A stretch of 26,733 nucleotides of DNA from a virus. Below are positions 6,001 through 12,000 of the stretch, one piece after another. The position numbers were made by a program. Position 1 is the first letter of the stretch. Each line of letters opens with the position of its first letter. The stretch is from the UHGV virus genome UHGV-0379735; one strand, given 5' to 3'.

Positions 6001-9000
6001 TAGTTCCTACTTTTAGCTGGTTTGCCATTACTATACTGGCATTTGCTCTCTGCTACTCAATAAACGATAAAATTAAAGAGCACAAGTTCGCTGGATTTAT
6101 GGCTGACATTAGCTACCCGCTGTATCTTTGCCACTCATATATTGGCTATTTCTTGATGGGGGTAATTATAAGCTTTGGCATCTTGCCAAGATCGCTTGTT
6201 GTTTTCATACCATTTCCAGTGGCTATCGGCGTTGCATACCTCATACACAAATACGTGGAAATGCCGACGCACAGAATGACTTTCTCAGGAATATTGAAAC
6301 TCAAAAAGGCATAATTAAAGGGGCTTGCGCCCCTTTTTTAGTATCCAACAGTCTGAACTGCCCCTGACCCAGATGAAGATGATTGAAGTTCCATGGTGTA
6401 ATAACCATTAAGTGGCTCACCTTCCCAATCAAGGTTAATGCGTAATACATGGCCATATTTGGTTGCATTTGACTGGGCGATAAACCCTCCAGGCTTATCT
6501 ATATCTCTCTGTGGCATCCCAGAATATACCTGATTTGCAGTATATGCCTTATCAACAGCAGGAGCGCCAATAGAGGCGGTAATTTTAGGCCACGTTCCGG
6601 AGCTGTGCAGAACATCTACAGCATACCCGGTAAGCCCGGTTGATGTTCTCCTGATCAAACATTCAATATACCCACTCCCATGAGATCCGCCAATCGACTT
6701 GATAATCAGTTTTGCAGTACCGCAATCCCATGGATTTAAAGTCTGATCCCAACATTCAGCCTTTAGGCCGCTAGGCATAGGAAAATCCACGCTGGTTAAC
6801 ACTGCCTCACCTGGCCATACTCCTCCCACAACTATTGGACTCGGTATCCTGACACTCAATGTTTCTAAATATCCTCTTCCCCATCCATTATTTGTTTGTC
6901 TGGCAAGGTGCTCGTAAATTGGCCTTATTGTCAAAGCCTGAATAAACGCTGGCTTGGATGCTGGCGCATCTGCTGCGTTATAAATACTGATAGTTTTCCA
7001 TCCCCTACCAATCAGCGTACCAATACGCTTTTGCAAGGCATCAGAGTGATTATTAGATCCACGATTTCGTGCTACAGTAACAGTGCTCTGAATTGCGTTA
7101 TAGTTTGTTTGCACAAAACTATTTTGCTCGGCGAAAGCATAGTATGAAACCCCTATAGAGGGATGGACCTCCTGTGGTTCAGAGAAGCAAAATGACAAAT
7201 TAGAGTCATCCAGCCAGCTACCAACAACATCAACTTCTGCTGCCTCTGCATCAAGATAGAAACTGTATGACGTTCTAACATATTTTCCAGCATCAAACCC
7301 ACCAATGATGCCTTGAAGCGTATATGTCTCGTAACCAAATCCCATTGTTACATTGTCAAAAGCATCAAAAAAACCAATCTGATCGCTCTGTTTGTATGGC
7401 CATACCGTTATTTCTGTAGATACTGGTCTATAAAACGGAAGCATTCCTCCGGCCATCATCATTGAACCAATTGCTTCAGCTATTCGTTGATATCCGACAG
7501 AGTTGAAGTGAATTGGGTCTGATGCGATAGAACCATATGGGATATTGTATGGTATTTCATTTGCTTCGATATATGCACAACCATATACATGAGCTAAATT
7601 TCTGATTTCCTGCCCCCAAATTTGGAACTGTTGAATATTACCATGCTGCTCATTACCACCTGCAACTGGCTGAAGAATAATAACCCCCATCCCCCAATCA
7701 ATGAATCTACGAATGAACTTCTCCATATACGTTAAATACACGTCTATCGTGGTTGATGTAGAGTCATTTATCGCATACATAATAATTGCAACATCACAAT
7801 TAGGATTATCCTGCCATGCTAAATATTCAAATCCTTGTTGTGCTGTCTGCCCGGATACTGCTCTAGTGATACTTGTTACATTCCCACCGGTACAGATAGA
7901 AAGGTATCTTGCGAGCCTTTCTGGATAGGTTACATTAGCACGACGCGTTAACCCTGTTCCGTTTGCATCTGTTGAGTTAGGATCCCAACCAAAAGTCTCA
8001 CTATCTCCCTGACAAAGGATCGATAATCCAGACTTTTTACGAAGATTGAAGTGAGCCTTGGTAAGAGCCTGAATATTTCTGTTTCTATAATCAGCGCTAT
8101 CTGATGCCAAAGTAGCGTTGCCAAGATTTGTAATGTGCTCTTGAACAGTCTTCCCATCATCAGTTCCGATTAATAAAGATCCTCCTGATCCAGACAGTTC
8201 CTGTCGCAGTTGATCTGGATCATATTTAATTACATTAGGGTAATAAAATTGCAAACCACCAACAGCATCATACACCGCCATCGAATGGCCTTTCACAGTA
8301 ACAAACTTGGCAATCTGTCCGTTATATACAGGGTAACCAGCAGCGTTAATGATGATTGGTTGCGAAACAGGAACGTGAGAACCATCCTCATTATCCACAT
8401 AAACCTGAATCTGGTTTTCAGGATTTACAGGGTCAGTGTCAATTTTACCGATATAAATTTTGCCATTGGCAACCGCTTTAAAAGAACGCGCCATAGTGAA
8501 AAGTTGCGAAGGCATCGATACGATCACATTGGCTGTAATGTCTGTCATTTAATTTGCTCCAGATACAAGGAATCGCCGCAGAGTGGCTACGGTTGGTGTT
8601 TGTTGCATACCGAAACGGTACGATTGTTGATTTGTACAGTAGGTTTTACGATGCCATTCCACCCAACTGGTGAGGCATCAAGGATGTACAGCAAATACGA
8701 CGAGGCGCAGTTTCACTTGAGACTTCCGCATGAACTTCACGCGAAAATTAAGCAGCGTGCGAAGATGAATAACAGGTCGCTGAACTCAGAGATAATTGCA
8801 GCGATTGAAGAATCATTGGCTAAACAAAGCTCTGCATCCGGTTACATTGACGATGCAGAGCGTATGGCAGAACAACAATCCGATATGGTAAAGAAAATTG
8901 TCTTTGATACGTTCAGAGATTTATATAAAAAAGACAGCAACTAACCATCCGTGTCTTTCCGTTACTTCTGGTTATCATCACTGTTCATCCAGTACATGAT

Positions 9001-12000
9001 GCCTAGCCTTGATATGGTTTTCTTATCTGATTCTGGAAGTGAGTTGTAAAACGAGCGCCAAGCAGAAGAGCGTCTTACAGTTGTATCAACGATGCTTTCT
9101 GGTGCTTGTTTTACTGCCAGCCTTGCTGCTTTCTGGAATTCTGGTGAGCTAATTAGCTTTTCTGCAGATTCAATTGATTCAGCGCCGCCCATCGCCCTGA
9201 TTTTGCTGGCGACTTTTGCCCCAATTTCTGACCCAGCAACAGCACCTACTGCACTGAACGGTCCTGACACAGTTGAACCAACCGCAGTGCCAATGCGTTG
9301 GGCATGGTTAGCAACAAATTCATTTGCCACAGTGACGCGATTAAACCGTTTGACGAACTCGTTTAGTCTTCCTGTAGTTATCTCGTAAGATTTTGCATCT
9401 TTGATAGCCTTTGCGACCTTATATACATCGTTCAGACCTGACATAGTCTCTTTTGGTAAATGTTGGGCAAGATTGCGCATCTGCCCGTTTGCTAACATGT
9501 TTTGATACCAGTCAGCAAACCCTGCAGGATTAAAATCAGCGCCACGTTTTCCGTTCGAAAGCATATCCCGGAGACCTGTCCCCAGTAGCTCGGTTCTTAG
9601 CTTCCTGGACGGCGTGTTTTGCATCAATTCACGAAATCCTTTGGCATCGCCTTTCGACATTGCCTGTAGTGCTGTAGTTGCTTTGCGAGAAACATCACCG
9701 TTCAGCGTTCTGCCAGTTAGATTAATCATTTGCTCTTCCATGCTTTTTCGCATCTGAACAAGCCTCTGAGCAACTTCAAAATCACGTAATGCATTTGTCT
9801 CTGACAGCGCCGCCTTTTGATCATCGGCGAGCGAACCGTAAAGCCTCGATAAAGCAGCGCGATCAGCATCTTTATATGGTCCAGACTTCTTATGAAGTGC
9901 ATCACCAACAAGTCGTCGTTGCTTATTGAGATTTGCATAAGTTAATGCGCCGTTCTTGCCTGGATTAACTGCCCGAAAGACTCTCTTTTCAATAGGGTCA
10001 AGGTTTTTCATCCCGCCAAGATCTTCTGCCACCTGTTTGAGCATTGACCTTGTTGATGGCGCATCAATTTTTGCACCTGCAGGCATCGCCTTTTCAACAT
10101 TGCGATAAAGCTGGTCGCTTCGTTTCATCAGCGCAGACATTCTTCCATTGATCGTATCAATAAACTTGTCGCTCATACCAAGAGCATCTTTTGCACCGGA
10201 AACGCGATCAATTATCTCCCCCGCGCCCTGTGCTAGTTGCCTGATTGCTTCATTTTCCTGCACCCGTAGAGCAGAACCCGCACGGGACTTGATTGCTTGC
10301 TCAACTGCCTTGTATTGCTCGTTCCCGGAAAAGTGTGAAGGGAGTAATGAATCAACATTAAGCCTTTCAGCAGACTCCAGAACTTCAGCCTGAGGATTGA
10401 TATCTAGTTCATCAAGCGATGAAGCGAGATTTGGCCTTTTTTGTGCTGCTACTGTGCGAACGACCTCCTCTGGGTCCCTCGCCGCAGGCGTCATTGGTAC
10501 ACCTTGTGCTGCTCTTGCCTCTGCGGCATGAACCGCAGGATTTGTTGCTGCAGCGGCATCACCGGAGAATGGTGATGTTTCTGTTGGCGCAGTACCGGAG
10601 AATGGTGATGTTTCTGTTGGCGCAGTGGTCGCTCTCTGTGCAGATGTTTTATTGCCACTAATTATATTTGATGCACCACGAACACCACGGGTAACGCCAT
10701 TTATCAGGCCATGCGTAGCAATGTTAAGTCCGGCATTAATAGCGGCATTTTCGGCAAAATCACCCCGTTGATTCGCCGCGTCAGCGAGAGAACCAATGAC
10801 CATGTTTCCAGCTACTCCTGCTCCAGGAACAAGATAACCGCCTATTGACTCTCCAGCTTGCGCATAAGGGTCTGTCGGTCGATCTACTGGACGATAGACA
10901 TCGTCCAAAACCTTGGGGCCACCAAGCCCCTGGCTGATTGCATTAATCAGACTTGCGCCACCCTGCAATACGTCAAATGGTATGTTTACCAGACCACGAC
11001 CAGCCTGCTCTGCAATTTGCCCTGCACTTTGACCACCTGTGAGCCAATCGCCAGCTTGTTGCATCAATGATGGTTCTTCACGTGCTGGTTCATTATTGGC
11101 CTGATTAACTGTTTGTTGCTGAACAGGTTTCGGTGCGACAGAACTTACGGGTTGAGGTGGCTGCTGACTGGCTGCCTGCTGCTCAATCTGAGCAAATGGA
11201 TTATTTGGGTCTGACTGCACACCTGATGCCGATACTTGTTCGGATGACTGTGCTTCCAGTTGTGCAAACGGGTTGTTAGGGTCTTGCTGAGGATGTACCT
11301 TTGCAGAGGTGGCGCGCTGTTCGACTGTTGAGTCTGTCACCGGGTCACCCGCCCATTGAGCAAAGCGATCATCAACGTAACCGCGGCCTTCAGGTCCTGG
11401 CGTATATTCACCACGCTTTGCCTTCATAACGTTGCCGGGACCGTCGTGATAAGCCTGAAGAGCATCACGCCAGTTACCAAACTGCTGGTACATCTTTGCC
11501 AGATAGCGCGCGCCAGCGTCAGCCTGATATTCGGGGTTTTGCATTTGCTCATCGGTATAACCCATATCACGCCATGTCCCAGGCATGACCTGAGTCAATC
11601 CTACAGCCCCGGCGGAGCTTACTGCGGCAGGGTTGTAAGAAGACTCCTTGGCACCCAGTGCAGTCATCAACCCTTCTGGCACACCGTAACGTGCGCCAGC
11701 CTGCTCTAACAAATCACGGTAATTAGCCATTTACTGCCCCAAAGATGGAAGATATCCGTAGCGATTAATGAAGTCGATTGACAGCTCGGGGTGCTGCTTC
11801 AGGTAATCTATAGAAGCCTGAGGCGCTTCCACTCGCTTGATACCGTTTTGCTGAACGTACTTACCAACCGCCTCATTACGCTTCTGGTTGAGCGTGTTCA
11901 GGATGACGCCAGCGTTGCGACGAAAGGACTCCTCGCTCTGCGAGTTCTGCAGCGAACCAACAGCCTGGTCGAGCTTTTTGCCCTCGGCATCAGAAAGTGC

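Follow-up and report, generated by a model that had tools for sequence, protein, structure and literature searches.

Two phage proteins named gp16 are among the closest described systems to the one considered here. P22 gp16 is present in the virion, is released on adsorption and is required for DNA delivery (PMC10461980). In T7, the N-terminal domain of gp16 decorates the gp15 tunnel and is needed when the peptidoglycan is highly cross-linked, and Glu37 has been named as its catalytic residue (PMC8954989); according to one review, P22-like phages are without this transglycosylase function. We have analysed a 26,733-nucleotide stretch of viral DNA, UHGV virus genome UHGV-0379735 (hereafter the window, meaning the whole stretch), and found in the gene-16 position of a P22-like prophage a gene for a 922-amino-acid (aa) protein that begins with a soluble lytic transglycosylase (SLT) domain. 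The reading that we favour, with a probability of roughly 80%, is that of a gp16-type ejection protein built from exchangeable modules, which would be ejected with gp7 and gp20 and whose SLT domain would cut peptidoglycan locally during DNA delivery. The gene and the parts of its product that carry this reading are:

8962..11730, minus strand: gene-16-position ejection (E) protein, 922 aa, ATG start, stop codon included (open reading frame (ORF) and translation; synteny)
11341..11730, minus strand: N-terminal family-1 lytic transglycosylase (SLT) domain, aa 1-130 (Pfam SLT)
11644..11646, minus strand: Glu29 codon, predicted catalytic acid of an E-S motif (alignment to Slt70 E478 and T7 gp16 E37)
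10672..11070, minus strand: conserved gp16 core, aa 221-353 (BLASTP, 81% identity, E 1e-67, to P22 gp16 aa 53-189)
8965..10500, minus strand: C-terminal all-alpha module (C-module), aa 411-922 (AlphaFold2 confidence score pLDDT 80-95 over aa 440-780 and 840-915)

From the profile search, it is clear that the N-terminal domain is a transglycosylase of the SLT type. Pfam SLT PF01464 (GH23) matches aa 7-110 with E=3.4e-25 and 88.3 bits (cut-off 21.3), covering profile positions 2-110 of 117, and PHROG 342, the T7 gp16-type profile, matches aa 3-240 (E 4e-24, profile positions 14-243). When the protein is compared with PDB sequences by phmmer (aa 4-102 aligned), E29-S30 falls on E478-S479 of Slt70, the catalytic E-S motif that this family has where the second helix ends, and in a BLASTP alignment to the N-terminus of T7 gp16 (28% identity over 130 aa, E 2e-10) Glu29 falls on E37. 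Across an alignment of 17 SLT-bearing gp16 homologues (seven genera, 39-61% identity), six residues never vary, namely E29, S30, G44, Q47, Y94 and G97. The domain has a goose-lysozyme-like alpha-helical fold, with pLDDT above 90 over aa 1-130 in an AlphaFold2 model of the 922-aa protein built on 53 sequences. The SLT signature named in the original prediction, which had been made by a model from the sequence alone, thus holds in a profile search, and its catalytic Glu is both present and conserved. By analogy with its family, the domain would be expected to cleave the MurNAc-GlcNAc linkage to 1,6-anhydro-MurNAc. There is no signal peptide at the N-terminus of the protein, so that murein would be reachable by the SLT domain only via delivery from the virion.

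The rest of the protein identifies it as gp16-type. PHROG 770 ('DNA transfer protein'), which spans all of P22 gp16, spans aa 108-875 of the 922-aa protein (768 aa, E 2.6e-160), and the gene lies downstream of gp7 and gp20 homologues; together with the identity of the core, this bears out the gp16 position originally assigned. The synteny with P22 extends to homologues of gp7, gp20, gp14, gp26 and gp10, with the Mnt gene downstream. The coordinates and length of the ORF had been given correctly and its strand left unstated: the ORF runs on the minus strand, and 8962-11730 read on the plus strand is full of stops. The core, for which PF26808 is precomputed on homologues, is the sole part similar to P22 gp16 by BLASTP; it contains a Gly-rich hydrophobic segment (aa 294-320, from hydropathy), and a second such segment lies in the C-module (aa 813-838).

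P22 gp16 has 609 aa, so that the 922-aa protein is longer by 313 aa, close to the difference of about 300 aa noted before. The extra length had been placed at the N-terminus, which is correct for about 170 of the 313 residues, contributed by the N-module; the remainder consists of a longer, different C-module plus the linker. An N-terminal origin of all 313 residues is ruled out, since BLASTP aligns just aa 221-353 with P22 gp16. The first 52 aa of P22 gp16 are replaced by 220 aa in the window protein, and the 569 aa past the core have no BLAST similarity to the last 420 aa of P22 gp16.

The RefSeq name of the orthologue in Shigella phage Sf101 is 'lytic tail fiber protein', a label shared by PHROG 21143, and from these names the protein might be taken for an external lytic tail fiber or a tail-associated lysin in place of an internal ejection protein. 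We find this scarcely credible. The gene occupies the gene-16 slot right after gp7 and gp20, its product carries the P22 gp16 core and the long PHROG 770 match, and the tailspike is a separate gene with a P22 head-binding domain (6338-8548); the model, moreover, is all-alpha, with no fibre-like or beta-helix fold.

Between the SLT domain and the core lies a segment that holds a pair of short motifs:

11071..11340, minus strand: Gln/Pro/Ala-rich segment, predicted disordered, aa 131-220, holding the motif pair (composition; pLDDT)
11254..11283, minus strand: DPNNPFAQ(L/I)E motif copy 1, aa 150-159 (sequence)
11182..11211, minus strand: DPNNPFAQ(L/I)E motif copy 2, aa 174-183 (sequence)

The two motifs are present inside the range given for them at first (about 11190-11290), and pLDDT is below 50 over aa 132-149 and 164-237. 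The copies differ at 9 of 30 nt, which change seven codons synonymously and one amino acid (Leu/Ile). The pair and its 24-aa spacing are kept in homologues from Cronobacter, Klebsiella and Shimwellia, and distant SLT-bearing homologues have an analogous pair, 'MANVFDQFDQ' and 'GGNVFDQFGDY'. An origin of the pair as a slippage repeat is ruled out by the 9 differences, nearly all of them synonymous, and by the conservation in distant genera; judging from these comparisons, the pair is old and under selection. A scan of the window revealed no further DPNNPF-like motif outside the 922-aa gene. Among the homologues, the aromatic pair N-x-F-[A/D]-Q-[L/I/F] goes with the SLT domain even at about 40-50% identity (P0123, P0124 and P0134), one motif copy stands at the extreme N-terminus in some SLT homologues, and a Serratia/Pluralibacter subgroup has a GPWEKYQ / DGPWxKYQ pair in place of the N-x-F pair.

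In addition to the protein itself, we have compared relatives of its locus drawn from IMG/VR, from E. coli genomes and from the protein database, among which the modules recombine freely. Three N-modules were found (the SLT type 'MANYRDLL', the P22 type 'MMKVTANGKTF' and a third type, 'MAKAWKDVIASPQYQ'), together with two core types and at least two C-modules, namely the window type, in proteins of 911/922, 743/754 or 767 aa, and a P22-like type, in proteins of 613 or 797 aa. The modules meet at about aa 206 ('PVQQQ') and again at about aa 350.

Several variants of the gene were encountered in the same comparison. An 841-aa gp16 variant with a MAKAW-type N-module (L028 / L100, IMGVR_UViG_2835261108_000001) has an extra insert of about 80 aa (GNIDIHNRPVVKNPDGSISTVRSMS...GKHLGMFDNPDDATAYAESLH) ahead of the conserved core. 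A 16-aa insertion (IGTAAKAVGATAKLAGD) within the Gly-rich hydrophobic segment of the core occurs in porcine enterotoxigenic (ETEC) strains (L109, L111 and P0014) and is found in many pig-associated E. coli prophages. In E. coli XPFI_3_2, YJR and FDN-9 (H35, H36 and H26) the gene is 5'-truncated and adjoins unrelated prophage genes (antitermination protein N and a DUF1317 gene); these copies look like rearranged prophage remnants. PGAP calls the intact alleles of E. coli EC581, MSB1_9I and AHM8C212RI (L109, L110 and L112) pseudogenes ('incomplete; partial in the middle of a contig'), while their ORFs are uninterrupted, at 927, 753 and 763 aa.

The exchange of the SLT module involves the neighbouring gene as well, and the elements concerned are:

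11113..12526, minus strand: cassette of about 1.4 kb, the C-terminal part of gp20 (about aa 180-443) plus gp16 aa 1-206 with the SLT domain and motif pair (pairwise blastn boundaries)
11731..13062, minus strand: gp20 homologue, 443 aa (Pfam Inj_translocase, E 6e-68)
13072..13764, minus strand: gp7 homologue, 230 aa (Pfam P22_gp7, E 2e-134)

The stop codon of gp20 abuts the ATG of gene 16 (TAAATG), and the identity of the gp20 homologue to P22 gp20, 43%, is confined to aa 1-242. In all 44 IMG/VR SLT loci the upstream gp20 C-terminal half is 97-100% identical to that of the window, and in three diverged SLT loci it is 95-97% identical; in all 33 non-SLT loci it is unrelated, even where the gp16 core and C-module are the same. 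The linkage is just as tight among 5426 complete E. coli genomes, where the SLT module and the gp20-C module are each present in 67 and the block of 1260 contiguous nt in 66. The SLT-module matches (70 genomes) are all at least 99% identical. Some gp16-like sequence occurs in 668 of the 5426 genomes, and for roughly one in ten E. coli genomes with a gp16-type gene the review's generalisation does not hold.

Across loci L001-L081 the gp20 C-termini co-vary with the gp16 N-modules, giving three cassette types whose matched ends are FINRYGYLP, GSYTSKSGIQFTVE and SLWGD in gp20, with SLT, MMKVTANG and MAKAW, respectively, in gp16. In K1E the muralytic domain is on the gp15 homologue; by Pfam, there is no lysozyme-like domain in gp20 of the non-SLT cassettes.

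The linkage fits the binding of T7 gp16-N to the gp15 tube and also the requirement that gp16 and gp20 be matched for function (PMC10461980), and such strict co-inheritance of SLT and gp20-C suggests where gp16 and gp20 touch in the P22 conduit. A more ambitious version, which we offer tentatively and consider rather doubtful, is that gp20-C and gp16-N are a co-adapted interacting pair, with the aromatic motifs acting as a 'molecular tape' (like T7 gp16 aa 157-228) that docks the transglycosylase on a periplasmic gp20 tube. The T7 ejectosome architecture would then have been rebuilt independently in some P22-like phages, and the cassette would have spread recently, aiding entry into cells with dense peptidoglycan.

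The same co-inheritance could be expected if the SLT domain were mainly a structural or anchoring element, which binds peptidoglycan or, in the manner of the 'wings' on the T7 tunnel, decorates the gp20 tube, with catalysis contributing little; that most P22-like phages do without the module is in keeping with this as well. We nevertheless judge it unlikely, because homologues at 39-61% identity all retain the catalytic Glu-Ser and the remaining active-site motifs unchanged, which argues for selection on catalysis beyond the fold.

Some observations weigh against a peptidoglycan-cutting, gp16-type ejection protein. P22 gp4 has been reported as a virion-associated lysin (PMC5380687), and the window prophage also encodes a gp4 homologue (16498-16959). 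About 90% of the E. coli gp16-type genes are without the SLT module, so that the domain is dispensable for the basic P22-type mechanism. Comparison of the C-module with P22-type gp16 C-modules by hhalign gave a probability of 15%, a value by which homology is neither shown nor excluded. Finally, the linkage of gp20-C to gp16-N may be mere physical adjacency between two conserved recombination anchors.

Taken together, the domain content, synteny and mosaic structure described above still lead us to prefer a modular ejection protein with a working transglycosylase. The protein would be packaged in the virion and ejected together with gp7 and gp20. In the periplasm the SLT domain, with Glu29 as catalytic acid, would cut glycan strands locally and so let the gp7-gp20-gp16 conduit cross the peptidoglycan, while contact with the inner membrane would be made by the core and C-module, a role already suggested for P22 gp16. 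Such a mechanism would mirror that of T7 gp16, in which the transglycosylase domain is required only if the peptidoglycan is highly cross-linked. Inheritance of the SLT domain and the matching gp20-C as one cassette would fit a contact between both parts in the conduit. P22 genetics with swappable E-protein genes could test what a virion-borne transglycosylase contributes.

The core and the C-module are joined by a linker in which the tandem repeats are concentrated:

10501..10671, minus strand: Ala/Thr/Ser/Pro-rich linker, aa 354-410 (pLDDT 26-42; composition)
10561..10626, minus strand: unit A, 33 bp x 2, perfect, 11-aa unit x 2, aa 369-390 (Tandem Repeats Finder)
10528..10557, minus strand: unit B, 30 bp, 10-aa unit, one copy in the window (comparison with relatives)

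This linker is both a tandem-repeat hot spot and a module junction (in P0001 the junction is at about aa 350), and, to judge from the model, it is almost certainly a disordered spacer; both repeat regions, the motif pair and the linker units, fall in segments with AlphaFold2 pLDDT below 50. At 10561-10626 Tandem Repeats Finder gives 2.0 copies with a period of 33 and matches of 100%, in agreement with the perfect 33-bp duplication that had been noticed there. A perfect 33-nt tandem copy cannot be due to chance, and it is not an assembly artefact, because the same allele occurs in independent complete genomes and contigs. Direct reading of the sequence shows a duplication junction without microhomology.

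One copy of unit A is present in phages Sf101 and APC_JM3.2, whose genes are 99.5% and 98.9% identical to that of the window; their single unit is an Ala (GCG GCA) variant, as against two Pro (GCG CCA) copies in the window. Most loci with this linker likewise have one copy, and two copies are found in the window and four IMG/VR contigs. Among the matches listed that span the linker, from about 50 complete E. coli genomes, six have two copies by match length, a figure that rests on those matches and is not an exact count across all E. coli genomes. The length polymorphism that the original prediction held possible is therefore real, with unit A copy number differing among close relatives; the recent slippage event that it proposed is not borne out. 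The two-copy alleles are of two kinds, perfect (Pro/Pro codons) or with one mismatch (Ala/Pro). Without exception, they have in common a downstream set of single-nucleotide polymorphisms that is missing from the one-copy alleles, while their upstream haplotypes and N-modules differ. Since the two-copy alleles carry one linked downstream haplotype behind different N-modules, we read the duplication as one older event, which was probably inherited and moved by recombination and is not private to this genome.

Unit B lies directly downstream of unit A and is present in two copies in E. coli MSB1_9I (L110) and in P0003/P0004, and in three copies in AHM8C212RI (L112) and P0012. All linker repeat variants are in frame. 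Longer E. coli alleles (+15 and +27 nt) were considered as three copies of unit A, which is ruled out; they contain a 48-nt core insertion or an extra unit B instead.

Since the adjacent units vary independently (A in 1-2 copies, B in 1-3), always in frame, and gp16 is a highly variable target of SieA exclusion (PMC10461980), the repeat number might be adaptive, with the linker as a contingency region whose length tunes the periplasmic reach or escape from SieA-type exclusion. We hold this to be very unlikely: both units are multiples of 3 nt, so there is no on/off switching, all two-copy A alleles come from one event, which gives no hint of a high mutation rate, copy number has no association with the N-module, and the known SieA escape changes map to the C-terminal region of P22 gp16, not to a linker (PMC10461980). 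Within our preferred reading the 33-bp duplication would be an in-frame length change in a disordered spacer, of one origin, tolerated and spread by recombination. The repeat polymorphism is minor, showing only that the linker tolerates 10-22 extra residues.

The window opens with host genes, mlaA (1259-2014), a formate/nitrite-transporter-family gene (yfdC-like, 2308-3240) and tRNA-Arg(CCU) (3316-3390). The P22-like prophage (Lederbergvirus) is integrated at this tRNA gene, beside the yfdC-like transporter gene and mlaA; the integration site of Kapi1 is reportedly the tRNA gene argW. The plus-strand prophage genes encode the integrase (3516-4706), an Acyl_transf_3 acyltransferase (5151-6314) and Mnt, which is the C-terminal part of the ORF at 8210-8944. 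On the minus strand are the tailspike (6338-8548), the 922-aa gene (8962-11730), gp20 (11731-13062) and gp7 (13072-13764), followed by gp14, an Sf6-type needle, gp10, gp4, coat, scaffold, portal and large terminase, in the order of the P22 late operon. The closest phage to the window is Sf101, with 96% identity over 8258-23114, in which the RefSeq label for Mnt is 'partition protein ATPase', an annotation problem.

The 736-aa tailspike (6338-8548, minus strand) combines the P22 head-binding domain (aa 1-113) with a GDSL/SGNH esterase domain (aa ~180-360), and its best phage match is just 42% identical (Salmonella phages g341c and NM-3). It is adjoined by the Acyl_transf_3 gene (5151-6314, plus strand), which is O-antigen-acyltransferase-like. 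That one prophage encodes both an acyltransferase and a tailspike with an esterase domain suggests that receptor de-acetylation is paired with seroconversion. The tail needle (gp26 position, 282 aa; 14222-15070, minus strand) has an Sf6-type C-terminal knob (PF16532, E 3e-117), and the needle of Sf101 is shorter (639 nt).

A protein identical to that of the window had already been deposited in NCBI, from six contigs of E. coli and S. sonnei, and other 922-aa variants are recorded on 19 and 12 contigs. The protein and many of its relatives, which are known from E. coli, Shigella, Serratia, Klebsiella, Cronobacter, Pluralibacter and Shimwellia, are annotated automatically as 'lytic transglycosylase domain-containing protein', and the Sf101 GenBank record says 'transglycosylase'. 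No functional study was found in the literature searched, and an earlier account of SLT-bearing gp16 types may exist. With an identical protein in public databases and an architecture already known from T7 gp16, the protein is well supported and yet fairly ordinary.

The nearest counterparts are gp13 of Sf101 (NC_027398, 911 aa) and gp29 of E. coli phage APC_JM3.2, whose nucleotide identities of 99.5% and 98.9% extend over the whole gene and which have the same modules and neighbours. P22 gp16 has in common with the window protein its gene position, PHROG 770, the partner genes 7 and 20 and the core at aa 221-353, but is without the SLT domain. In bacterial Slt70, MltC, MltE and P. aeruginosa Slt the catalytic domain is exported by a signal peptide or lipoprotein signal and is joined to other accessory domains, whereas that of the window is fused to a phage ejection protein; by sequence it is nearer to bacterial Slt70, MltC and MltE than to T7 gp16, which the phmmer search against PDB did not return.

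The window protein nevertheless resembles T7 gp16 in being encoded by the largest of three consecutive ejection-protein genes, in having the transglycosylase domain at the extreme N-terminus, with no signal peptide and an equivalent catalytic Glu (E29 versus E37), and in the extended non-globular segment that follows this domain. It differs in length (922 versus 1318 aa), in the lack of sequence similarity past the transglycosylase domain and in a PHROG 342 match that goes no further than position 243 of the 1235 in the profile; the T7 core proteins (7eyb_I) gave a weak whole-model Foldseek match (E 2.2e-3, TM 0.13). Unlike those of T7, the E-proteins of P22-like phages form no ordered core stack in the virion (PMC8954989). 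On these comparisons, the window protein probably acts in the manner of T7 gp16-N, yet it falls outside the T7 gp16 family.

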